A program made the translations under genes and the position numbers. Under the pieces are notes generated by a model. It did not search any database and was not told the origin of the DNA. It was given only the letters and a program-made list of their open reading frames with translations. Source: Pseudomonadota bacterium (GTDB taxonomy: Bacteria > Pseudomonadota > Gammaproteobacteria > Steroidobacterales > JBCCFQ01). From it: 11,102 bases of DNA. Below are positions 106 to 9,149 of this stretch, piece after piece (the stretch's first letter is position 1; each line of letters begins with the position of its first letter). The stretch spans positions 1 to 11,102 of the forward strand of contig JBCCFQ010000052.1 of NCBI GenBank assembly GCA_039029655.1. The letters are read 5' to 3'.

Positions 106-180
106 GCTGCGGTAGCTCAATGACAGAGCATCGGATTGTCGATCCGAAAGATGTCGGTTCAAGTCCGATCCGCAGCGCCA
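106..180 (+). tRNA. tRNA-Asp (anticodon GTC), CCA encoded
   Basis: Folded by eye. The 7-bp acceptor GCTGCGG/CCGCAGC is perfect. D-stem is GCTC/GAGC. Anticodon stem TCGGA/TCCGA carries loop TTGTCGA. T-arm has a TTCAAGT loop. Discriminator G is followed by CCA. Confidence 0.85.
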
Positions 181-189
181 CACTTTTTT

Positions 190-265
190 GATCCGGTGGG
201 CGAATGGTTAAGCCACGAGGCCTTCAACCTCGTAATTGCAGGTTCAAATCCTGTTCGGATCGCCA
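190..265 (+). tRNA. tRNA-Glu (anticodon TTC), CCA encoded
   Basis: Acceptor GATCCGG/TCGGATC pairs with one G-T wobble. Anticodon stem CGAGG/CCTCG carries loop CCTTCAA. T-arm is GCAGG-TTCAAAT-CCTGT. Discriminator G is followed by CCA. Confidence 0.8.
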
Positions 266-291
266 CTTCAACTTGTCTTATGGAGGACATA

Positions 292-515
292 TGAACATCA
301 AAGATATTGTGAAACACAACACCGTTCGATTCGTTCGTTATCGCCAAGGAATCGCATACTACGGTGTCGACGTACCCAGCCAAGGCGCTTATGTATTTCC
401 AGTGCCACTAGAGGATATTGGCAGCGCCACCTTGGAACTAGAGGATAAAGCCATTCTGTTTATGCGTTATATCAAACGCGCACTGAGTGAAGGTTCGTTT
501 GTTCCGCTAACGTAA
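292..515 (+). CDS. hypothetical small protein (74 aa) embedded in the tRNA array
   Basis: ATG at 292 sits 5 nt after a strong Shine-Dalgarno GGAGGA (283-288). The ORF runs to TAA at 515 and ends 10 nt before tRNA-Ile. The upstream part of the tracked ORF 204..515 overlaps tRNA-Glu and is not credible. I recognise no homolog. Confidence 0.5.
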
Positions 516-525
516 GGTACCTTGT

Positions 526-601
526 AGACCGGTAGCTCAGCGAGTAGAGCGTGCGACTGATAATCGCGAGGTCGGCTGTGCAACTCAGCCTCGGTCTACC
601 A
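526..601 (+). tRNA. tRNA-Ile (anticodon GAT), CCA encoded
   Basis: Acceptor AGACCGG/TCGGTCT pairs fully. D-stem is GCTC/GAGC. Anticodon stem TGCGA/TCGCG carries loop CTGATAA, identical to E. coli tRNA-Ile. T-arm is GGCTG-TGCAACT-CAGCC. Discriminator A is followed by CCA. Confidence 0.8.
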
Positions 602-607
602 TTTTTT

Positions 608-685
608 CTGGGAGTAGCTCAGCTTGGTCAGAGTACTCGGTTTGGATCCGAGGGGTCGCTAGTTCGAATCTAGCCTTCCAGACCA
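608..685 (+). tRNA. tRNA-Pro (anticodon TGG), CCA encoded
   Basis: Acceptor CTGGGAG/CTTCCAG pairs fully. D-arm is GCTC...GAGT. Anticodon stem CTCGG/CCGAG carries loop TTTGGAT. T-arm is GCTAG-TTCGAAT-CTAGC. Discriminator A is followed by CCA. Confidence 0.85.
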
Positions 686-694
686 CACACTTTT

Positions 695-782
695 GGAGAC
701 TCGCAAGGTTGGCGTGCTTAGCCGGTTTGAACCCGGTGATGTCTTAACGGATGTGGGAGTTCGATCCTCTCAGTCTCCGCCA
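695..782 (+). tRNA. tRNA-Ser (anticodon TGA), type II with long variable arm, CCA encoded
   Basis: The gene is 88 nt. Acceptor GGAGACT/AGTCTCC is perfect. Anticodon stem GCCGG/CCGGT carries loop TTTGAAC. T-arm is GGGAG-TTCGATC-CTCTC. A ~17-nt variable region is present. I could not resolve the D-arm and variable-arm pairing by eye. Confidence 0.7.
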
Positions 783-789
783 AAACTAT

Positions 790-866
790 GGTGTTCGTAG
801 CTTAATTGGCAAAGCCCCAGTCTGTGAAGCTGGCAAATGTCGGTTCAAATCCGTCCGTTCACCCCA
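790..866 (+). tRNA. tRNA-His (anticodon GTG) with extra 5' G(-1); acceptor stem carries two T-T mismatches
   Basis: D-arm is GCTT-AATTGGCA-AAGC. Anticodon stem CCAGT/GCTGG carries loop CTGTGAA. The 3' end ACC-CCA and a G at -1 match the His tRNA pattern. Acceptor GTGTTCG/CGTTCAC has two T-T mispairs and the T-stem has one mismatch. The gene may be degenerate. Confidence 0.55.
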
Positions 867-874
867 ATTCACTA

Positions 875-962
875 GGAGAAGTGGCCGAGTGGCTAAAGGC
901 GCTCGTTTGCTAAACGAGAGAGGCATAGTCTCACCCAAGTTCGAATCTTGGCTTCTCCGCCA
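875..962 (+). tRNA. tRNA-Ser (anticodon GCT), type II, CCA encoded
   Basis: The gene is 88 nt. Acceptor GGAGAAG/CTTCTCC is perfect. D-stem is GCC/GGC. Anticodon stem CTCGT/ACGAG carries loop TTGCTAA. A long variable arm is present. T-arm is CCAAG-TTCGAAT-CTTGG. Discriminator G is followed by CCA. Confidence 0.85.
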
Positions 963-968
963 ACTTCA

Positions 969-1046
969 CTGTCCGTAGCTCAGTTGGATCAGAGCAGCTG
1001 GTTTCGACCCAGCCGGTCGGGAGTTCGAGTCTCTCCGGGCAGTCCA
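969..1046 (+). tRNA. tRNA-Arg (anticodon TCG), CCA encoded
   Basis: Acceptor CTGTCCG/CGGGCAG pairs with one wobble. D-stem is GCTC/GAGC. Anticodon stem GCTGG/CCAGC carries loop TTTCGAC. T-arm is GGGAG-TTCGAGT-CTCTC. Discriminator T is followed by CCA. Confidence 0.85.
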
Positions 1047-1054
1047 TTCAAAAT

Positions 1055-1130
1055 GCGGGCATAGCTCAATTGGCAGAGCACGACGGCGCCACCGTCGGGG
1101 TTGTGGTCTCAGCCTCCACTGCCCGCACCA
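1055..1130 (+). tRNA. tRNA-Gly (anticodon GCC), non-canonical T-loop and C33
   Basis: Acceptor GCGGGCA/TGCCCGC is perfect. D-stem is GCTC/GAGC. Anticodon stem CGACG/CGTCG carries loop GCGCCAC, with C at position 33 instead of U. The T-arm region GTGGT-CTCAGCC-TCCAC lacks the TTC motif. Discriminator A is followed by CCA. Confidence 0.55.
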
Positions 1131-1135
1131 ACTAC

Positions 1136-1206
1136 AGAGAGGGAGGTGGTCTCAGACAGGGCTCATAACCCCGTTTTCGCTGGTTCGAATCCAGCCCTCT
1201 CAACCA
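1136..1206 (+). tRNA. tRNA-Met-like (anticodon CAT) with initiator-type anticodon stem and truncated D-arm; possibly degenerate
   Basis: The anticodon arm GGGCTCATAACCC is identical to the E. coli initiator tRNA-fMet anticodon stem-loop, with its three G-C pairs. T-arm GCTGG-TTCGAAT-CCAGC is perfect. The acceptor shows 6/7 pairs with an A1-A72 mismatch and an ACCA end. Only 14 nt lie between the acceptor and the anticodon stem, so a normal D-arm is absent. A GTC-TCA-GAC mini-hairpin sits there instead. Confidence 0.4.
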
Positions 1207-1209
1207 GAT

Positions 1210-1286
1210 TGTCTGATAGCTCAGTTGGTCAGAGCGCTGCTTTTACACAGCAGAGGTCGTCGGTTCGAATCCGACTCGGACAACCA
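1210..1286 (+). tRNA. tRNA-Val (anticodon TAC), CCA encoded
   Basis: Acceptor TGTCTGA/TCGGACA pairs with one wobble. D-stem is GCTC/GAGC. Anticodon stem CTGCT/AGCAG carries loop TTTACAC. T-arm is GTCGG-TTCGAAT-CCGAC. Discriminator A is followed by CCA. Confidence 0.85.
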
Positions 1287-1394
1287 ATGTTGAGATGTTC
1301 ATAGCGTTCAGCGGTTCGGGTTCGGATCCCGTCTGGCGCACTTACGCTGTCATTGTACGGTGTGTACCGAACGCCCTTCACACTCAACCGCCAA

Positions 1395-1467
1395 TGGAAA
1401 TTAGCTCAGTTGGTTAGAGCATCAGACTGAAATTCTGAAGTCGCCAGTTCGATTCTGGCATTTCCCA
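1395..1467 (+). tRNA. tRNA-Phe (anticodon GAA), no encoded CCA
   Basis: D-arm is GCTC-AGTTGGTTA-GAGC. Anticodon stem TCAGA/TCTGA carries loop CTGAAAT. T-arm is GCCAG-TTCGATT-CTGGC. Acceptor GGAAAT/ATTTCC has a T-C mismatch at the 1:72 position. Discriminator A is followed by ACA rather than CCA. Confidence 0.65.
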
Positions 1468-1838
1468 ACAATGTCCTTCCAAGGCATCTAGGTAAAGGCC
1501 AAAAGCCTGCGGTTCAAATCCGCCCTTAGGCGAGGGTATCGCCCCATCCGCACTCACCGTCGGCTGACACCGAATTGGCTCAGCCAGTTTGGTGGTGGCA
1601 GGCAACTGACCGCCGATGGGTGTGTTGTCGTGTTGATCCGGTGGCTTGTCCTTCGAAGTTCCGTCCGAAGTTTGTTCATGAGACTCAGTCTCAAAAAACC
1701 TAGGACCAAGCTTTGGAAGCACGAACCGCCCGATCATCCGACACCATTTGTCCGCTGTCACTTGTGACGGTGAGTGCTCCATTTTCAAAACAGTTTCAAA
1801 CCAATCAGTCTTCAACCAAAAAAGGAGGTGATCCAATC

Positions 1839-3125
1839 ATGGCTGGTCTTAGGCGACTAGCAGAACTTGAGCGACAAATAACGGCGCGACGGACCAGCCA
1901 ATCTTTGGCATTGGGCCCATCTAGCCCAAGCCCTCACAAACGCCCGTCCCAGGACGGAATATCAAATCACGAAGGAGAACGCAGTATGTTCTATCAAAAA
2001 TTCATCGTGCGTAAGCACGAACGCGGTCTCCTGTTTAAGGACGGAGACTTCATCAAATTTCTTGAACCAGGTACGTATCGTTACATTGGTTTGGGTAATC
2101 GTTACAACGTCGAACGCTACGACCTTTCCGTTGCCGCGTTTGAACACCGCTTGAAGGATTTCTTGATTCAAGCGGAACGTGACGAAATCGATCGCTTGTT
2201 CACTCTGGTTGAAACACGCAGCGAGGAAGTTGCGTTGGTGTACCTGAATGAGCGTGTTGCCACGGTACTGGCCCCGGCAGAGCGCAAGCTTTACTGGAAG
2301 GGTGTAGTGAATGTGCGTGTTGAGCGCTTTGACCTCAATGAGGGCATTGCTTTGAACGCCCGTTTGACCAAACACCTTATCAATGGTCGAGACGCGAAGG
2401 TGTTGTCGACTGCTGAAAAGGCGATCTACGCCCGTATCGTTCCTGAAGGTCATGTGGGTTTGCTTTATGTGGACGGTGAGCTTGCCGAAACGCTACAAGC
2501 CGGCCTACACGCTTACTGGAACGTAGCCCACACGGTTAGCGTGGAACTGGTGGATCTTCGTGTCAAAGCGTTGGAAGTTCAAGGTCAAGAAATCTTGACC
2601 AAAGATAAGGTGGCGCTACGTATTAACGTTACTGCGACCTACCAATACTTGGACGCTGCAAAAGCACTACGTGCTGTGAAAGATCCACTGGATCAACTGT
2701 ATAAGGAAATTCAGTTCGGCCTTCGTGCAGCCGTTGGCACCCGTAAGCTGGACGCATTGCTTGAGGACAAAACAGCGATTGACCACGACATCGCTGAACA
2801 CCTGGGTAAGCGTTTCGCTGATATCGGCATCAGCGTTAAGAGCGTGGGTGTCAAAGACATCATCCTACCTGGTGATATGAAGGATCTTCTGGGTAAGGTG
2901 GTGGAAGCCGAAAAAGCGGCACAAGCGAATGTTATTCGTCGCCGCGAAGAAACCAATGCGACTCGTTCATTGCTAAACACCGCGAAAGTGATGGAAAGCA
3001 ACACAGTTGCATTGCGTCTAAAAGAGCTAGAGACCCTAGAAAAGGTTACCGAAAACGTAGGCAACCTATCTGTCGTGGGTGGTCTCGACGCTTTGCTGGA
3101 TGGACTGGTTAAGATTAAGCAGTAG
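1839..3125 (+). CDS. SPFH/band-7 domain protein (stomatin/slipin/HflKC-like membrane-associated protein)
   Basis: The ORF is long and has no competing frames. ATG at 1839 is preceded by AAAGGAGGTGA with 9-nt spacing. An alternative start at ATG 1986 also has a good RBS (GAAGGAGA) and would drop a low-complexity Pro/Ser-rich N-terminal extension. After residue ~50 the product shows a typical slipin N-terminus (FIVRKHERGLLFKDGDFIKFLEPGTYRY). The C-terminal half is a coiled-coil Ala/Glu/Lys-rich region typical of band-7 proteins. Stop is TAG at 3125. Confidence 0.88.
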   Translation: MAGLRRLAELERQITARRTSQSLALGPSSPSPHKRPSQDGISNHEGERSMFYQKFIVRKHERGLLFKDGDFIKFLEPGTYRYIGLGNRYNVERYDLSVAAFEHRLKDFLIQAERDEIDRLFTLVETRSEEVALVYLNERVATVLAPAERKLYWKGVVNVRVERFDLNEGIALNARLTKHLINGRDAKVLSTAEKAIYARIVPEGHVGLLYVDGELAETLQAGLHAYWNVAHTVSVELVDLRVKALEVQGQEILTKDKVALRINVTATYQYLDAAKALRAVKDPLDQLYKEIQFGLRAAVGTRKLDALLEDKTAIDHDIAEHLGKRFADIGISVKSVGVKDIILPGDMKDLLGKVVEAEKAAQANVIRRREETNATRSLLNTAKVMESNTVALRLKELETLEKVTENVGNLSVVGGLDALLDGLVKIKQ

Positions 3126-3136
3126 TTCAGCCCATG

Positions 3137-3174
3137 GAGGGTGTGCAACGCACCCTCCAACTTTCAAATTTTTC
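3137..3174 (+). terminator. probable rho-independent terminator after the SPFH gene
   Basis: A GC-rich hairpin GGAGGGTG-(TGCAACG)-CACCCTCC with an 8-9 bp stem is followed by a T-rich tract (CTTTCAAATTTTT). The T-run lies a little far from the stem, so confidence is moderate. Confidence 0.5.
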
Positions 3175-3175
3175 G

Positions 3176-3252
3176 ACGGCTGTAGCTCAGTGGATAGGAG
3201 CGCGACATTGCGAAAGTCGAGGTCACAAGTTCAACTCTTGTCAGCCGTACCA
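3176..3252 (+). tRNA. tRNA-Arg-like (anticodon probably GCG); A-A mismatch closes anticodon stem
   Basis: Acceptor ACGGCTG/CAGCCGT is perfect. D-stem is GCTC/GAGC. T-arm is ACAAG-TTCAACT-CTTGT. Discriminator A is followed by CCA. The anticodon stem CGAC(A)/(A)GTCG has an A-A mismatch next to the loop. This gives an effective 9-nt loop ATTGCGAAA, so the anticodon assignment (GCG) is tentative. Confidence 0.6.
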
Positions 3253-3259
3253 ATTCAAT

Positions 3260-3333
3260 TCGGTGCTGGTCTAAAGGCAGGACGCGAGACTTTGATTCTC
3301 GAGGTCGTGGTTCGAGTCCACGGCGCCGATCCA
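3260..3333 (+). tRNA. tRNA-Gln (anticodon TTG), CCA encoded
   Basis: Acceptor TCGGTGC/GCGCCGA pairs with one wobble. D-stem is GTCT/GGAC. Anticodon stem CGAGA/TCTCG carries loop CTTTGAT. T-arm is CGTGG-TTCGAGT-CCACG. Discriminator T is followed by CCA. Confidence 0.8.
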
Positions 3334-3351
3334 AATACGGGTCCAACTATT

Positions 3352-3484
3352 GGTGCCGTGGATCTCGATACTCAGCGATGTACTAAAGATCAATCCGCAC
3401 CTACCGTCCACAAAACAGATGCCATGCGGGCGGATTGGGTTGCAACCCTTGTTTAACTCAGTTCAATTCTGAGCGGCATCTCCA
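3352..3484 (+). tRNA. candidate interrupted tRNA (133 nt) carrying a ~58-nt insert; isotype undetermined
   Basis: The 3' part is a textbook tRNA end: T-arm CTCAG-TTCAATT-CTGAG, acceptor strand CGGCATC, discriminator T, CCA. The only upstream 7-mer that pairs 7/7 with this acceptor strand is GGTGCCG at 3352-3358, which includes one G-T. It is followed by a TG at positions 8 and 9. The conserved repeat element (3382-3439) lies between these ends. Removing it leaves 30+45=75 nt. I could not fold a canonical D-arm or anticodon arm by eye, so the call is tentative. Confidence 0.4.
3382..3439 (+). repeat. copy 1 of a repeated ~58-60-nt structured element (ACTAAAGATCAATCCGCACC ... GCGGGCGGATTGGG)
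   Basis: The 20-nt 5' block and 14-nt 3' block are identical to copy 2. An internal 8-bp inverted repeat CAATCCGC/GCGGATTG is separated by a ~30-nt partially conserved spacer (ACAAAA...ATG). Confidence 0.65.
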
Positions 3485-3486
3485 AC

Positions 3487-3562
3487 ACCCTCGTAGCTCA
3501 ATTGTCAGAGCACCGGGTTTTTACCCCGGTGGTTGTAAGTTCGAATCTTACCGGGGGTACCA
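3487..3562 (+). tRNA. tRNA-Lys (anticodon TTT), CCA encoded
   Basis: Acceptor ACCCTCG/CGGGGGT pairs with one wobble. D-arm is GCTC-AATTGTCA-GAGC. Anticodon stem CCGGG/CCCGG carries loop TTTTTAC. T-arm is GTAAG-TTCGAAT-CTTAC. Discriminator A is followed by CCA. Confidence 0.85.
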
Positions 3563-3601
3563 ATTCTCGTTGTCGCAAGGATTTAACGACTTATCTAATT
3601 C

Positions 3602-3655
3602 ACCCTTATAGCTCAATGGACGAGAGCGCCGAGTTTCTTGGCAAGGTTCTCGGCT
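3602..3655 (+). pseudogene. tRNA-like 5' fragment (acceptor strand + canonical D-arm + aberrant anticodon-like arm) with no matching 3' half
   Basis: ACCCTTA-TA-GCTC-AATGGACGA-GAGC is a canonical 5' acceptor strand and D-arm. It is followed by a 6-bp stem GCCGAG/CTCGGC enclosing a 15-16 nt loop instead of a 7-nt anticodon loop. No downstream T-arm or acceptor strand pairs with it. The repeat element copy 2 follows. Confidence 0.3.
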
Positions 3656-3677
3656 CATCAATCTTTTTTGAAGAAGC

Positions 3678-3737
3678 ACTAAAGATCAATCCGCACCCAG
3701 TGTTATGGAACAAAAATGACAAGGCGGGCGGATTGGG
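3678..3737 (+). repeat. copy 2 of the repeated ~58-60-nt structured element
   Basis: It shares ACTAAAGATCAATCCGCACC (3678-3697) and GCGGGCGGATTGGG (3724-3737) with copy 1. It has the same internal inverted repeat CAATCCGC/GCGGATTG. Confidence 0.65.
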
Positions 3738-3745
3738 GTACCAAC

Positions 3746-3822
3746 GCGGATCTGAAGGGAATGGCATACCTCGGTGGTTTAAACCCATTGGCTTCCCAGT
3801 TCGAATCTGGGGGTCCGCACCA
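3746..3822 (+). tRNA. non-canonical type-I tRNA with Leu anticodon TAA (short variable arm, 3-bp D-stem), CCA encoded
   Basis: Acceptor GCGGATC/GGTCCGC pairs with one wobble. T-arm CCCAG-TTCGAAT-CTGGG is perfect. Discriminator A is followed by CCA. Anticodon stem GGTGG/CCATT has two G-T pairs and carries loop TTTAAAC. The variable region is only 5 nt, although Leu tRNAs in bacteria and phages are normally type II. The gene shares the 5' motif CTGAAGGGAA..GCATACCT with the tRNA at 3947. Confidence 0.55.
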
Positions 3823-3824
3823 AA

Positions 3825-3904
3825 GCGCAGCTGACGGAAATTGGAAAAGCCTTTAGTACCTAAAACCTACTCGTTTCCGCGTTCGAATCGCGGGCTGCGC
3901 ACCA
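3825..3904 (+). tRNA. tRNA-like gene with perfect acceptor and T-arm but non-canonical D/anticodon arms (anticodon arm = 4-bp stem + 9-nt loop CCTAAAACC)
   Basis: Acceptor GCGCAGC/GCTGCGC is perfect. T-arm CCGCG-TTCGAAT-CGCGG is perfect. Discriminator A is followed by CCA. Only AGTA/TACT can close an anticodon-like loop, and that loop is 9 nt. I found no clean D-stem. Confidence 0.45.
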
Positions 3905-3946
3905 TTTTCAAATCGATACCCCACCAGGTTGCGGGTAACTCATCTT

Positions 3947-4024
3947 GGCCGTCTGAAGGGAACAGGCATACCTACCTGTCTTAGAAACGGGTGTTTCTCG
4001 GTTCGACTCCGAGGGCGGCTACCA
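3947..4024 (+). tRNA. non-canonical type-I tRNA with Leu anticodon TAG (short variable arm, 3-bp D-stem), CCA encoded
   Basis: Acceptor GGCCGTC/GGCGGCT pairs with two wobbles. T-arm CTCGG-TTCGACT-CCGAG is perfect. Discriminator A is followed by CCA. Anticodon stem CCTGT/ACGGG carries loop CTTAGAA. The variable region is 5 nt. The gene is a paralog of the tRNA at 3746. Confidence 0.55.
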
Positions 4025-4340
4025 AATTAGGGCACGTTGGCAAATGGACGCCGCCACTGAAAACGTTTAGTTGATAGTGGTCCGGATAAAACCGGTCTTG
4101 TTCTTAAGTAAATGCGAGAGCACGGTTGAAGATGGCAGGCGACTGCTCTGGGTAAAGGTTACTCGCTGGCGCCCGTTTCCAATCTCGCATTCTGCCGGTA
4201 GTAATGCATCGGTTACAGCGGTATGCGGGTTCGCCTGCGATGTGCAGGGATGCACAAGTGTCGCGTAGGACAGGATGTCCGAGAGCGACCCGTCTCCACC
4301 AAAATCTTACACAATCCACATGTTTTCCGGGGAAAGAAAA

Positions 4341-4907
4341 ATGACAATGAGAATTCTAAAATTAGATGTAGGCGGACGTCCTATCGCGTGGATTACACGG
4401 GAAGATGGGGCGCTGTTGTATTGCCGTGACCAGGTAGCATGGGAAGCGGGTGTTGAGGAAGCCATATTACGAGGCGGATACTCCCGTCGCACTGGACTGC
4501 GTTCAACGCTTCGGGTGAACTCAATTCTTGCCACAACGTCCGTGGACAAAGGCGCGGACGATTGGGCAGGTACCCCGGCACTGACCAACGCCCGTCTTTT
4601 TCGCAGAGATGATTACATGTGCCTGTACTGTGGCGAGGTATTGTCGCCGCGACTGCTTACACGTGATCACATCATTCCGGTCTCTGGCGGAGGCAAGGAT
4701 GAATGGGAAAACGTCGTGACGGCATGCCGACCCTGCAATCATCGCAAAGACAACGGTCGTCTTGAGGATATTGGAATGAGGCTACTGGCCGTTCCCTACG
4801 CACCCAATCGTGCGGAAGGACTAATTTTGGAAAATCGTCGTATCCTTAACGATCAAATGGAGTTTTTAAGGGCTCGAGTTGGCACAAAAAGTCGGCTGCG
4901 AGTTTAG
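4341..4907 (+). CDS. HNH-family endonuclease (N-terminal domain + C-terminal HNH nuclease motif)
   Basis: The ORF 4275..4907 has a likely start at ATG 4341, preceded by GGGGAAAG. In-frame ATGs at 4275 and 4320 are alternatives. The C-terminus carries a classic HNH signature: CLYCG...RDHIIPVSGGGKDEWENVVTACRPCNHRK. Stop is TAG at 4907. Confidence 0.85.
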   Translation: MTMRILKLDVGGRPIAWITREDGALLYCRDQVAWEAGVEEAILRGGYSRRTGLRSTLRVNSILATTSVDKGADDWAGTPALTNARLFRRDDYMCLYCGEVLSPRLLTRDHIIPVSGGGKDEWENVVTACRPCNHRKDNGRLEDIGMRLLAVPYAPNRAEGLILENRRILNDQMEFLRARVGTKSRLRV

Positions 4908-4924
4908 TAAATAGAGGAAGCATC

Positions 4925-6334
4925 ATGTCTTACTTACAACAAGTTGAAAAAGTATCAGAAGCACACTACGTGTTGCCCAAGATTGGCGACATGCGTGTCG
5001 AGGTGCACGCCTATCTATCAGATACTTTGTTCGCACAAACCGATGAAGCCTTGTGGCGTCAAGCGGCACAAGCCGCCGCCTATCCTGGGATGCTGGGTCT
5101 GTATCTTATGCCGGATACTCACCTTGGCTATGGTATTCCCGTGGGTGGCGTGGCAGTTACCGAAGACGTGATCATTCAAGCCGGTAGTGGTTACGACATC
5201 TCTTGTGGTGTTGTCTATCTCAAAGTGCCAGGCCTAACGGCTGTAGACATTGCCGATTGGGACAAGCGTCGACGCTGGATTGATGATGTTGAGTTGCGAA
5301 TCGCGACCGGCGTCGGTAGCCACCGTCCCAAGCATATGCCCACCCTATCGGATAAGAAGATTGAGGATATCTTCCGATACGGTGCTCAGGCTATTGGAGT
5401 TCGTGCCGATGTTTGTGAACGTCAGTACATTCCAGTGGATGAATCTGCTCTTGATACCGATCGAATCAAACGGGCGCGAGATAAAGCAAACCCGCAAATT
5501 GGTTCGGTGGGTGGTGGTAACCACTTCGTTGAGATGCAGGTTGATGTCAACGACGGCTCAGTATGGGTGATGATTCATTGCGGCAGTCGCGGTTATGGTT
5601 GGCAAACGGCCAACCACTACTTCTATCAAGGTGCGGAACATCGCGGCCTAGCGAAGAACCGCCGTGAAGAGTCTTGGTTGCGGGCAGATGAACCCTTGGG
5701 TCGTGAATACTGGGCCCATCATAACTCTGCCGCCAACTATGCTGTGGCCAACCGACACATCATTGTGCGGGGTGTGCAAAAGGCTTTGGAGAACGTCTTC
5801 AATGCTAGGGGTGAAGTTTTCTATGAAATTTCACACAACCTGGTGCAAGAAGAAACCTTAGTTCTGCCCGATGGCACCACCAAGAAAGGTTTTGTTCATC
5901 GCAAAGGCGCTACCCGCGCGTTTCCGGCTGGACACCCAGACTTGGTGGGTACCAAATGGGAAAAAACAGGTCATCCATGCCTAGTACCTGGCTCCATGTT
6001 GGACGGTGCCGCTATTTTGTATCCGCTGAAAGGCGCGTACCAATCAGGTTGTTCGGTGAATCATGGTTCAGGCCGAGTCATGGCGCGTGGTAAGGCTAAG
6101 CGAGAGCTTGCCGACAAGCACGACGACATCGATGCCGAAATGCGTTATATCAAGCGCACACTAGGTGGTGTGGAGGTACAAGGCATTGTGGGTAACACCC
6201 GTCGTACACCGCTGGACGAATGCGGTCACGTTTATAAGGACTTAGATGAGGTGCTGCGAGTTCTGGAAACAGAAGGGATCGCCAAAGTAGCAAACCGGCT
6301 ATACCCGGTTGCCAACATCAAGGGCACCGACTAA
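4925..6334 (+). CDS. rtcB: RtcB-family RNA 3'-phosphate/2',3'-cyclic phosphate to 5'-OH ligase
   Basis: The ORF is 469 aa. The RBS GAGGAAG lies 4 nt before ATG 4925. Conserved RtcB metal and GTP-binding blocks are present: MPDTHLGYGIPVGGV, GSGYDISCGV, GGGNHFVE, HCGSRGYG, SHNL and HRKGATRA. Confidence 0.93.
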   Translation: MSYLQQVEKVSEAHYVLPKIGDMRVEVHAYLSDTLFAQTDEALWRQAAQAAAYPGMLGLYLMPDTHLGYGIPVGGVAVTEDVIIQAGSGYDISCGVVYLKVPGLTAVDIADWDKRRRWIDDVELRIATGVGSHRPKHMPTLSDKKIEDIFRYGAQAIGVRADVCERQYIPVDESALDTDRIKRARDKANPQIGSVGGGNHFVEMQVDVNDGSVWVMIHCGSRGYGWQTANHYFYQGAEHRGLAKNRREESWLRADEPLGREYWAHHNSAANYAVANRHIIVRGVQKALENVFNARGEVFYEISHNLVQEETLVLPDGTTKKGFVHRKGATRAFPAGHPDLVGTKWEKTGHPCLVPGSMLDGAAILYPLKGAYQSGCSVNHGSGRVMARGKAKRELADKHDDIDAEMRYIKRTLGGVEVQGIVGNTRRTPLDECGHVYKDLDEVLRVLETEGIAKVANRLYPVANIKGTD

Positions 6335-6347
6335 GGTGCCCTTTTTT
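6322..6347 (+). terminator. rho-independent terminator of the rtcB gene
   Basis: A perfect 7-bp stem GGGCACC/GGTGCCC with loop GACTAA overlaps the TAA stop. It is followed immediately by TTTTTT. Confidence 0.8.
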
Positions 6348-6552
6348 GTGGAGTGAGCTCTGCCATTGTTAAAAGACGCCTATTCGCCCAGTTTAAAGGG
6401 ACGGCGTACTTCATAAGCGTAGACAGTGCCTACGCCAAACCATCCGTGCTACTCGTGAGGGAGCTCTATCAGAAGAGTAATCCAATCGCTCTTGACTCCG
6501 CGCCATCATCGCGTCAGGCTTCTCCGCTCCACTGACTACAGGCAAAGATGCC

Positions 6553-6959: not shown

Positions 6960-9149
6960 ATGGACCGTGTAGAAATCGTTCACCAGAACTTTCGGACTCG
7001 CCTCGCCGCTGAAGACTTCCCGCCAGGTGTTTCGCCTAAATTCAAGCTACTCAGCACCACTGAGGCGGTTAGTCTGTTTCACGCACAGGTGCTGAGCCGT
7101 CAGCTTGATCGCATCAGTCGCATGATGCAAAAATCGGGACAAGGCTTCTACACCATTGGGTCGTCCGGGCACGAAGGTATGGCGGCAGTTGCCCACGCCC
7201 TGCGACCCACGGACATCGCGTTTCTTCACTATCGTGATGCGGCGTTCCAGATCGCTCGCGCCAATCAGGTGCCGGGGCAGACTATGGCCTGGGATATGCT
7301 ACTTTCCTTTGCCTGTTCATCTGAGGATCCAACAAGTGGCGGCCGTCACAAGGTGTTGGGGTCTCGTACTCTGATGATCCCACCCCAAACTTCTACCATT
7401 GCCAGCCATCTACCCAAATCAGTGGGTATGGCTTTTGCCATTGGCGCCTGTCGTCACCGGAAACCAGAGCACCAATTGGTTTTCGACGACGCGGTCGCTT
7501 TTTGCAGTTTTGGCGACGCTTCGTTAAATCACTCAACGGCTCAAGGTGCGATAAACACCGCTTGTTGGTCATCCATCCAATCAACACCACTGCCTTTGCT
7601 CTTTGTTTGCGAGGACAACGGCATAGGCATATCCACCAAGACGCCAAAGGGATGGGTTCAGGATTCTCTCCAAGACCGTCCGGGTCTAAGGTACTTCTTC
7701 GCAGACGGACTCAATTTTTACGATACCTATCAGGTAACCAAACAGGCGGCGGAATTTGTACGTCGACTCAGAAAACCCGCGGTCATACATCTTAGAACGG
7801 TGCGTCTTTACGGCCATGCGGGTGCAGATTTAGCCACGTCTTATTTGCCAAAATCTGAAGTGGAGGCCGATGAAGCCAACGACCCATTACTTCATTCGGC
7901 GCGTCTTCTCGTGGAGAACCAGGCGTTGACCAGTGCTGATGCGCTAAAGATCTATGATGAAACAGAAGCGCGTTTACAGCGAATACGGACCCATGTGTCA
8001 ATCAGACCTCACCTCAGCTGTGCAGCTGAGGTCATGCACAGTTTGATTCCACCAAAACGCAACTGCCAGACCATCAAAGCAAAAACCGCCGATGAAAGAT
8101 CCACCGCGTTCGGCAATGACTGGCGCAGCATTGATCAACCCCAACCTATGGCCCGACTGATCAACTTCGCGCTAACGGACCTCATGTTGCAGCACCAAGA
8201 AATCACCTTGATGGGTGAAGATGTGGGGCGAAAAGGCGGCGTGTATGGCGTCACCCAAAAATTGTCTCATCGATTCGGGTCGGGCCGCATCATCGATACT
8301 CTGTTAGATGAACAGTCTATTCTCGGACTGGCCATCGGAATGGGTCAGAACGGTTTTCTACCCATTCCTGAAATTCAGTTCCTAGCCTATTTACACAACG
8401 CGGAAGATCAGCTTCGTGGGGAAGCAGCAACGCTGCCGTTTTTTTCCAACGGACAGTTTGCCAACCCCATGGTGATTCGAATTGCCGGATTGGGCTATCA
8501 AAAAGGCTTTGGCGGTCACTTCCACAACGACAATTCTTTGGCGGTGCTGCGAGACATCCCGGGGCTGGTCATCGCCTGCCCATCAAACGGGATAGATGCG
8601 GCTAAGATGTTAAGGGAGTGTGTGCGACTGGCTAGAGAAGAACAGCGGGTGGTGGTTTTCCTAGAGCCAATCGCACTTTACTCAGCAAGAGACTTGCACG
8701 AGGAGAAGGACGGACAATGGATGGGCGTATACCCCGAGCCAAACGAAACTTTACGATTGGGTGAGGTGGGTGTTCATGGTGACGGTGAGCTGGCAATTAT
8801 CAGCTATGCCAATGGTTACTACTTGTCTCGTCAAGCTCAGACTAATCTCTTACAACAAGGCATCAACACAAAGCTGATTGATCTACGTTGGCTGGCACCG
8901 TTACCTGTGGAAAACCTGTTGGACTCTCTAAGAGGGTGTGATCAGGTACTCATTGTGGATGAATGCCGCCGGACCGGTAGTCAATCGGAAGCGATCATGT
9001 CTTTGTTATACGAACAGGGGCTTCGAAGCCTGGCTCGGGTCACTGCCGAGGACAGCTTTATCGCCACGGGGCCCGCCTATGCCGCGCCCTTGCCATCTGT
9101 AGAGAAAATTATAGACGCGGCTCACCGTCTTTGTGGGGATGGATTGTGA
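6960..9149 (+). CDS. thiamine-diphosphate-dependent 2-oxoacid dehydrogenase E1 component, fused alpha/beta subunits (transketolase-like)
   Basis: The ORF is 729 aa. The N-terminal half has the E1-alpha TPP-binding motif (FGDAS...N...FVCEDNGIGIST, compare GDG...NN..YAIS). The C-terminal half has the E1-beta start (MGEDVGRKGGVYGVTQKL...GSGRIIDTLLDEQS...PEIQF) and a transketolase C-terminal-like region. Confidence 0.88.
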   Translation: MDRVEIVHQNFRTRLAAEDFPPGVSPKFKLLSTTEAVSLFHAQVLSRQLDRISRMMQKSGQGFYTIGSSGHEGMAAVAHALRPTDIAFLHYRDAAFQIARANQVPGQTMAWDMLLSFACSSEDPTSGGRHKVLGSRTLMIPPQTSTIASHLPKSVGMAFAIGACRHRKPEHQLVFDDAVAFCSFGDASLNHSTAQGAINTACWSSIQSTPLPLLFVCEDNGIGISTKTPKGWVQDSLQDRPGLRYFFADGLNFYDTYQVTKQAAEFVRRLRKPAVIHLRTVRLYGHAGADLATSYLPKSEVEADEANDPLLHSARLLVENQALTSADALKIYDETEARLQRIRTHVSIRPHLSCAAEVMHSLIPPKRNCQTIKAKTADERSTAFGNDWRSIDQPQPMARLINFALTDLMLQHQEITLMGEDVGRKGGVYGVTQKLSHRFGSGRIIDTLLDEQSILGLAIGMGQNGFLPIPEIQFLAYLHNAEDQLRGEAATLPFFSNGQFANPMVIRIAGLGYQKGFGGHFHNDNSLAVLRDIPGLVIACPSNGIDAAKMLRECVRLAREEQRVVVFLEPIALYSARDLHEEKDGQWMGVYPEPNETLRLGEVGVHGDGELAIISYANGYYLSRQAQTNLLQQGINTKLIDLRWLAPLPVENLLDSLRGCDQVLIVDECRRTGSQSEAIMSLLYEQGLRSLARVTAEDSFIATGPAYAAPLPSVEKIIDAAHRLCGDGL

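Follow-up and report, generated by a model that had tools for sequence, protein, structure and literature searches.

A gammaproteobacterial HNH-rtcB gene pair at the distal end of a long tRNA array island with a likely role in tRNA supply and repair

We analysed a stretch of 11,102 nucleotides from a gammaproteobacterium of the order Steroidobacterales (GenBank assembly GCA_039029655.1, contig JBCCFQ010000052.1; the whole stretch is hereafter the window), in which a gene for an HNH nuclease is followed by rtcB, the gene for an RNA ligase, behind a long array of tRNA genes. Judging from the sequence and its relatives, we consider it likely that the HNH-rtcB pair is the distal and probably co-transcribed end of a horizontally disseminated long tRNA array island that would work in tRNA supply and repair. 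The window is a gammaproteobacterial example of an already published arrangement and not a new system. The parts of the island are as follows:

106..4024, + strand: tRNA gene array, the part inside the window; 16 tRNA genes by ARAGORN, with Rfam tRNA matches
1986..3125, + strand: SPFH/Band-7 (slipin-like) gene, 379 aa; PF01145, E 2.5e-29; ATG at 1986, mechanical open reading frame (ORF) from 1713
3746..4024, + strand: three tRNA-like genes of 77-80 nt, Leu-UAA, 'Phe-AAA' and Leu-UAG, from ARAGORN structures; copies at 3746-3822, 3825-3904 and 3947-4024
4030..4320, + strand: degraded copy of a tRNA-like element of ~220 nt, from alignments; 78% identity to intact copies by blastn
4306..4329, + strand: degenerate 'site B' of an inverted repeat, ~30 nt upstream of the HNH start, from alignment and a motif survey
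4341..4907, + strand: HNH gene, 188 aa (mechanical ORF from 4275); PF14279, E 2.7e-13, and PF01844, E 5.5e-13
4925..6334, + strand: rtcB, 469 aa, archaeal-like long form; PF01139 over its full length; phrog_1075, E 3.9e-68
6320..6349, + strand: intrinsic-terminator-like hairpin (9 bp, 6320-6343) and T-run, overlapping the rtcB stop

A sequence-only reading of the window had named the two genes as HNH and rtcB, and the profile matches and intact motifs bore this out. RtcB matched PF01139 with 300.7 bits (residues 46-467 against profile positions 1-426 of 426), and its nearest solved structure was P. horikoshii RtcB (4dwr, E 4e-52, whole length), against which the ORF aligned without interruption. 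The motifs GYDISCGV (D91, C94), GGGNHF (N199, H200), HCGSRG (H218), SHN (H304) and NHGSGR (H380) were all recovered in this alignment, and D91, C94, N199, H200, H218, H304 and H380 are what we take to be the metal-binding residues and the guanylylated histidine of RtcB. By this measure the active site is intact, and the protein is predicted to join RNA 3'-phosphate or 2',3'-cyclic-phosphate ends to 5'-OH ends. The E. coli-type NCBIfam RtcB model scored far under its cut-off on the window protein. Between the window and its relatives rtcB showed a nonsynonymous divergence (dN) of 0.04-0.09 with synonymous divergence (dS) saturated, and the gene is strongly constrained by purifying selection.

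The HNH protein consists of a beta-rich N-terminal domain of ~90 aa, an HNH/zinc-finger core and a conserved C-terminal helix. The core carries the catalytic DH/N/NH residues and the CxxC...CxxC zinc site of the HNH (beta-beta-alpha-Me) nucleases, with the pattern CxxC...DH...N...CxxCNH intact (C94, C97, D109-H110, N124, C129, C132, N133-H134). By both sequence and fold the core was nearest to the Gme HNH nicking endonuclease, the HNH domains of Cas9 and IscB, and McrA; since all of these cut DNA, the HNH protein most likely acts on DNA as well. The N-terminal domain had no match in a PDB profile search, and comparison with known domains, proposed in the sequence-only reading, turned up nothing informative; both this domain and the C-terminal helix are conserved across the family. 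PADLOC gave weak matches to the HNH core only (PtuB, DpdF, type II restriction endonucleases). There were 3788 detectable relatives, nearly all of ~188 aa, and the window gene differed from its relatives with dN of 0.09-0.34 and saturated dS. The HNH gene is under strong purifying selection across lineages, without decay. An IscB- or Cas9-like RNA-guided nuclease was rejected: the HNH domain alone matched, at 44 bits against a cut-off of 175, there was no RuvC or PLMP domain, and the RNA at 4030-4320 is absent from most loci.

The gap between HNH and rtcB is 17 nt (4908-4924), where 18 nt had been counted before; the two genes are on the same strand, and a GAGGAA ribosome-binding site lies inside the gap. 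The strong terminator that had been proposed to close the unit was confirmed as a 9-bp hairpin with a T-run that is conserved in the relatives, where the hairpin is kept via compensatory changes (GGGCACC/GGTGCCC, GGGCGCC/GGCGCCC, GGGTGCC/GGCACCC). DNA homology with all related loci ends at 6343-6353, just past the terminator, which marks the right edge of the island. Purifying selection with saturated dS, taken with the maintained terminator, indicates old, constrained genes and not decaying selfish elements.

Upstream, the genes at 106-4024 stand in tandem on one strand at co-transcribable spacing, as in published long tRNA arrays (L-arrays), and a linked HNH gene, another mark of such arrays, is present in the window and in all 12 close loci described below. 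Most of the array tRNAs have an encoded CCA, and all were called on the same strand by ARAGORN. An earlier count of about 20 tRNA genes was a slight over-count for the window, which holds 16 or, with one extra marginal match at 1135/1140-1203 (Rfam; ARAGORN), 17; the left end of the window cuts the array, whose tRNA genes continue beyond it, and homologous arrays in related loci have 13-26 tRNAs. The HNH gene had been placed directly behind the array, and we measured a spacer of 316 nt between the end of the last tRNA (4024) and the HNH start. The genes flanking the island differ in every related locus, none of the window's flanking genes being common to any of the 12. GC content did not contrast between island and flanks in the window, and no near-identical DNA was matched in plasmids and phages.

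Embedded in the array is the SPFH/Band-7 gene, which the sequence-only reading did not mention, nor did it mention the prior literature on the arrangement. Its likely start is the ATG at 1986, which gives a length like that of its homologs, and 380-aa orthologs were found in every array locus of the gammaproteobacterial clade. With dN/dS of 0.05-0.18 between the window and its relatives, SPFH/Band-7 is a core partner of the island. No membrane segment was predicted on reading its sequence, and its N-terminal ~150 aa resemble a degenerate duplicate of the beginning of the SPFH region (RGLLFKDGDF... / HVGLLYVDGEL...).

Two neighbourhood surveys carried the linkage of the parts. The first was centred on HNH and used one-genome-per-species contigs, with HNH identity of at least 60% defining the close loci (n = 12; Woeseiaceae, Woeseiaceae-like and other gammaproteobacterial metagenome-assembled genomes). 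In 12/12, HNH was preceded by a tRNA array on the same strand in which an SPFH gene was embedded, and rtcB came directly after HNH in 7/12, 17-63 nt downstream and at 89-92% identity. Where rtcB was missing, HNH was followed either by a 121-aa protein and WapI or by a 307-aa protein. The second survey was centred on RtcB and covered metagenome contigs with RtcB at 84% identity or more and usable upstream sequence (n = 16); here HNH stood 17-48 nt upstream of rtcB in 13 (one gap was 503 nt), usually with tRNAs and SPFH. Across both surveys the rtcB copies that follow HNH in related arrays were 84-93% identical. The adjacency is not due to chance, since it was found again in many independent contigs with saturation at synonymous sites. 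RtcA and RtcR (the divergent CARF-sigma54 activator) were found neither in the window nor in the related loci, and an rtcBA/RtcR stress operon was rejected on this ground. The survey of neighbourhoods suggested by the sequence-only reading thus ties the pair to tRNA arrays and not to an ordinary rtcBA operon.

Either gene also occurs without the other. Among our loci (numbered with the prefix L), L105 has nine tRNAs, SPFH and RtcB without HNH, and L096 has a tRNA directly upstream of rtcB without HNH; HNH without RtcB was seen in L001, L006, L012, L014, L015, L017, phage contigs and Methylibium. HNH and RtcB thus assort independently within one island type, and this, together with the DNA-cutting type of the HNH core, justified the doubt already voiced in the sequence-only reading about a functional coupling of the two proteins. 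In L211 (790-900) the 3' end of HNH runs in frame into the last ~25 nt of rtcB (…ANINGTD and stop) and its terminator, with a 313-aa protein after them; this deletion scar indicates that the loss of rtcB was secondary. A 307-313-aa protein without a Pfam match stands after HNH or rtcB in L006 (10623-11546), L004 (12019-12945) and L211 (906-1847), and may be a further accessory component of the islands.

More distant relatives extended the association. In a betaproteobacterial (Burkholderiales) branch, the same full-length HNH family, at 41% identity, stands beside tRNAs: L179 and L180 have the order tRNAs-PcfJ-HNH-Band_7-RtcB (405 aa), Ideonella has two tRNAs followed by HNH, and Caldimonas brevitalea (L177; CP011371.1, 8041-12607) has three tRNAs, RtcB (400 aa), HNH, Ro60/Rsr and two YrlA-like Y RNAs (Rfam 65.9 and 34.7 bits). 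The Caldimonas locus is a hybrid of a Ro60/Y-RNA repair operon and the array-linked HNH; a second tRNA array begins ~9 kb downstream of it. The gammaproteobacterial Band-7 protein and the betaproteobacterial Band_7 protein beside HNH and RtcB were 50% identical over 378 aa, ungapped, whereas RtcB of the two branches shared 28% identity. Since Band-7 is orthologous and RtcB is not, the RtcB ligase function was recruited at least twice, and the presence of different RtcB clades beside the same HNH, Band-7 and tRNA context argues for selection of a 3'-phosphate/5'-OH ligase there, in keeping with repair of tRNAs that metal-independent RNases have cleaved and with an array that supplies tRNAs. This recruitment of two RtcB clades, and of Ro60 with Y RNA once, argues most strongly for a functional link to RNA repair.

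Full-length HNH homologs at 41-45% identity were also found on megaplasmids and in a phage: at the end of a 27-tRNA island on the Methylibium PM1 megaplasmid, inside a 39-tRNA region on Variovorax megaplasmids, and among the tRNAs of the Salicola jumbo phage SCTP-2. On IMG/VR contigs, 19 of the 29 HNH homologs had tRNA clusters within their 10-kb flanks, and three had a Ro60-like gene nearby. HNH genes of mycobacterial plasmids matched 67-73% of the window HNH protein. Several other genes were noted in these regions: a PcfJ-like protein (PF14284) by or in arrays of both beta- and gammaproteobacteria (L179, 8828-9964; L180, 8060-9208; L001, 1-478), AlkB, an HD-domain protein, NADAR and ERCC4 in the array region of the Methylibium megaplasmid (L089), and release-factor-like and SecB-like proteins in that of a Variovorax megaplasmid (L092).

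Long tRNA arrays were defined as horizontally spread by Santamaria-Gomez et al. (2021; PMC8421152). In cyanobacterial L-arrays an HNH gene (all8564) is conserved alongside the array and rtcB lies near some arrays, and in Anabaena translational stress induces all8564 and rtcB together with the array (PMC8421152); the TrcR regulon comprises the trn operon, the all8564 HNH gene, rtcB and a slipin gene (PMC10272220). The window island shares with these a long same-strand array, probably supernumerary and with a seemingly patchy distribution suggestive of horizontal transfer, and short tRNA-Leu genes without the long variable arm, and its ~180-aa HNH gene flanks the array on the same strand as does all8564 of Anabaena (178 aa). 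The all8564 protein and the window HNH family aligned with an hhalign probability of 99.5, with the HNH core at the same position and the N-terminal part weakly alignable. Moreover, rtcB and slipin/SPFH take part in the same response in Anabaena, and the same four parts are physically joined in the window. The two systems differ in that HNH is at the 5' end of the cyanobacterial arrays but at the 3' end here, that rtcB and SPFH are elsewhere on the cyanobacterial chromosome but in or beside the array here, that TrcR-type direct repeats were not recognised here and a 20-nt inverted repeat brackets the arrays instead, and that the host here is a gammaproteobacterium.

A second precedent is the predicted RtcB-Band-7 repair system with its tRNA-like b7a-tRNA of Burroughs and Aravind (2016), whose parts are sometimes exchanged with Ro60/YrlA, as far as that work is related in bioRxiv 10.1101/312249. 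On this second-hand account the window is alike in having RtcB near Band-7 and tRNA-like RNA or RNAs: SPFH (1986-3125) and rtcB (4925-6334) lie on one strand, as they do in gamma- and betaproteobacterial relatives, and Ro60/YrlA replaces Band-7 in the Caldimonas locus. It is unlike the system so described in that the parts are embedded in an array of at least 16 tRNAs with an extra conserved HNH gene. An SPFH gene also occurs inside the rtc locus of P. aeruginosa (PMC13086221).

Other systems were compared. RtcB of E. coli and Salmonella rtcBA with RtcR, and of rsr-yrlBA-rtcBA, is likewise thought to repair stress-cleaved tRNA or rRNA, and the Salmonella rtcBA operon is reported to be induced by damaged tRNAs (PMC7790460). 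Unlike these operons, the window and its close relatives are without RtcA, RtcR/sigma-54 and Rsr, and the 469-aa archaeal-like RtcB of the window is only ~28% identical to the enterobacterial-like form (400-405 aa). Mycobacterial tRNA arrays on plasmids and phages have HNH as their most widespread coding sequence (PMC5966550) and sometimes embed ribosome-rescue or translation genes, and an anti-defence role has been proposed for them (PMC5966550; PMC12803027); they differ from the window in phylum and array lineage, and RtcB and SPFH are not reported there as core genes. Like the window, phage T4 has a tRNA cluster with a free-standing endonuclease gene beside it (SegB, as cited in PMC8421152) and a tRNA-healing ligase, Rnl1, which with Pnk repairs PrrC-cleaved tRNA-Lys. 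It differs in that SegB is a GIY-YIG and not an HNH enzyme, in using Rnl1 (ATP-dependent) and Pnk instead of RtcB, and in having no SPFH partner; the window HNH gene, unlike SegB, is conserved like a host gene.

The tRNA-like genes next to HNH showed features of their own. Those at 3746..4024 lack the long variable arm and have a D-arm of unusual form. No RNA of the island is better conserved than 3947-4024, which keeps 82-96% identity between loci in which synonymous sites have reached saturation. Loci of the gammaproteobacterial clade held 35 distinct short 'Leu' genes of 75-79 nt with the same two features, each carrying a Leu anticodon (UAG, UAA, CAG or CAA); this short form was found in the Anabaena array (L093) as well and is lacking in betaproteobacterial arrays. 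Many tRNAs lie beside the Band-7 gene, and L179 and L180 have a conserved tRNA-like piece upstream of Band_7. The RNA at 3947-4024 is the best candidate for a counterpart of the published b7a-tRNA, if the island has one.

The interrupted tRNA genes of the sequence-only reading did not hold up: ARAGORN in intron mode found no intron-containing tRNA in the window, and the apparent one is the degraded ~220-nt tRNA-like element at 4030-4320. Intact copies (L010, 9740-9966; L001, 9731-9957; L095, 3854-4078; L018, 9732-9956) have a 7-bp acceptor stem, D and T arms, a discriminator with a CCA end, an anticodon-like arm with a 14-17-nt loop, and an insertion of ~125 nt in the variable region; in the window copy the T-arm is split by a further insertion of ~45 nt. 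The element was present in about five distinct loci only and matched no Rfam family. Its covariation was minimal, there being only four intact copies, and the fold of 4030-4320 was not more stable than shuffles (z = 0.83). Identity as a tmRNA, Y RNA or group I intron was rejected, the tmRNA hits being insignificant matches to the ends only.

In the relatives, an inverted repeat of 20-22 nt encloses the entire array, with the consensus GTCTACACAATCCGCATTGT; the bracketing sequence is ACAATGYGGATTGTGTAGACGT, its complement GTCTACACAATCCRCATTGT and its 20-nt form ACAATGYGGATTGTGTAGAC. The first tRNA is preceded by site A at a distance of 80-150 nt, and the HNH start by site B at ~30 nt; the window carries a degenerate site B only. 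Intact pairs were found in L001, L004, L011, L012, L016, L020, L154 and L169 (for example at 4546 and 9968 in L011), and the core pattern had 35 matches in 2.79 Mb of loci, nearly all at sites A or B. Within a locus, the differences between the copies were all G.U-compatible on the + strand, and the sense-strand duplex was more stable than the antisense one in 7/8 loci. These two properties suggest a leader-trailer processing helix, an operator pair or nuclease targets, and we regard all three as candidate roles. There is a slim chance that HNH is a dedicated partner of the array rather than a generic homing enzyme, with the repeats either pairing as a leader-trailer stem like that of rRNA operons, which would make the island one giant operon, or serving as sites for nicking or cutting by HNH, through which the array would be moved, inverted or regulated as a cassette. 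If so, the repeat-bracketed array with HNH, Band-7 and a class-I-like tRNA-Leu-derived RNA would be an undescribed, self-contained 'translation rescue cassette' common to bacteria, megaplasmids and jumbo phages.

From these parts we infer how the island may work, including its trigger, its substrates, the scaffold role and the HNH target. It would combine supernumerary tRNA genes, a cytoplasmic SPFH/Band-7 protein, the 188-aa HNH protein, whose family appears to travel with tRNA clusters, and the RtcB ligase. When translation is attacked or stalled, by anticodon nucleases, toxin RNases or ribosome-targeting stress, the island would provide extra tRNAs as replacements or decoys. RtcB most likely reseals cleaved tRNAs, whether of the array or of the host, and possibly rRNA, with 2',3'-cyclic-phosphate or 3'-phosphate and 5'-OH ends of the kind that metal-independent RNases would leave. 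Band-7 with a tRNA-like RNA would probably be a scaffold or a cofactor, a part already suggested for it in the RtcB-Band-7-b7a-tRNA system. HNH would be a metal-dependent nuclease whose target is most likely DNA and whose role, for example in maintenance, spread or conflict, would be linked to the array. The sequence-only reading had offered counter-defence by tRNA healing as one role; its combination of repair with an array stands, given that HNH-rtcB belongs with the array and that the RtcB active site is intact, and had already been published for cyanobacteria.

Several observations weigh against this reading. At 65-83% identity, the relatives of RtcB stand alone on the chromosome, with no tRNAs, HNH, RtcA or RtcR nearby, so that the island may have captured its RtcB from among housekeeping genes. 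In a large branch of the HNH family at 42-50% identity (Porticoccaceae, Microbulbifer, Cellvibrionaceae, Achromobacter, Pigmentiphaga), neither tRNA nor RtcB nor SPFH lies within 10 kb, which indicates that the function of the family is not strictly array-dependent; in seven Microbulbifer species HNH is a single chromosomal gene in conserved synteny between housekeeping genes, without a nearby array. RtcB and SPFH matched no known defence or anti-defence family in PADLOC.

These same data bear on whether HNH could instead be a selfish free-standing homing endonuclease of the T4 SegB kind, spreading the array by double-strand-break repair with RtcB as a passenger. The HNH fold is a classic one for homing endonucleases, and the gene borders an array that is found in varied genomic contexts, on plasmids and on phages, and assorts independently of RtcB; homing was proposed for all8564 by analogy with SegB (PMC8421152), and Pope et al., as cited in PMC5966550, link adjacent HNH genes to diversity of the tRNA repertoire. 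Homing genes of this kind show sporadic presence and rapid decay, whereas the whole 188-aa HNH protein is under strong purifying selection with constrained dN and no decay, is held in conserved synteny without an array in the Microbulbifer species, and recurs with different RNA-repair families (two RtcB clades, and Ro60 with Y RNA). Nor does it lie within an intron or intein: it is a free-standing ORF between the tRNA-like region and rtcB, and Rfam scans of the window and L010 found no intron families. Because of the selection and synteny data a pure homing role is weakened and we consider it unlikely; the presence of HNH nonetheless varies among arrays, so that membership in a SegB-like class is made less likely rather than rejected.

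A further reading is an attack-and-repair pair: HNH as a DNase effector would strike at competing or invading DNA or at the host, and RtcB and the tRNAs would shield the carrier's translation from retaliation. HNH-Rnl2 RNA ligase fusions in jumbo phages have been read in this way (PMC7824862), and the family occurs in jumbo phages and megaplasmids, with a core like that of DNA-cutting nucleases and the weak PADLOC matches to PtuB, DpdF and type II restriction endonucleases. With no immunity or partner gene conserved beside HNH, and with stable inheritance of HNH in free-living Cellvibrionales without mobile-element context, we find such an attack-and-repair role quite improbable. Least credible is a cleavage-ligation machine in which HNH and RtcB process or splice interrupted tRNAs of the array, the other role suggested by the sequence-only reading. 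The tight 17-nt spacing on one strand and the tRNA-like gene with a large insertion just upstream (4030-4320) had made it attractive, and yet it is already largely refuted: there is no intron-containing tRNA, profile searches found no EndA-family splicing endonuclease domain in any window ORF, and the insertion interrupts the variable region and leaves the anticodon loop untouched, in an element that few loci have and whose copy in the window is degraded. Beta-beta-alpha-Me nucleases leave 5'-phosphate/3'-OH ends, which RtcB cannot join, so HNH cannot feed RtcB; each gene, moreover, often occurs without the other.

The remaining features of the window lie outside these subjects. Inside the array is a small ORF:

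291..515, + strand: ~74 aa from M30 of ORF 204..515; phrog_20427, E 1.3e-12

By tblastn this ORF was kept at 78-88% identity in the same relative place in L001, L009, L011, L012 and L018; phrog_20427 is a phage family with no assigned function. The genes 3' of the island have no relation to it, are of housekeeping type and suggest that the island sits in the chromosome of a gammaproteobacterium. They code for a small membrane protein, an E1 dehydrogenase with its two parts fused, an acyltransferase and a rhombotarget lipoprotein; two of them are located as follows:

6960-9149: E1 dehydrogenase, alpha and beta parts fused, 729 aa
9131-10177: acyltransferase-like gene with a weak FabD/MdcH match, overlapping the E1 dehydrogenase ORF by 19 nt

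Long tRNA arrays are widespread, and their function is understood in Anabaena only. In the window locus and about 40 relatives, the array, SPFH/Band-7, HNH and RtcB are physically joined in Proteobacteria, and in a sister lineage the ligase is replaced by a non-orthologous RtcB. This provides independent comparative support for the view that arrays of this kind serve translation rescue or defence against RNases in a coupling with RNA repair, and that the predicted RtcB-Band-7-tRNA-like system is real. The comparative data sharpen the questions about the HNH protein, its Band-7 partner and the bracketing repeat, and they narrow the question of what these islands do to one small conserved protein, HNH, and one RNA.

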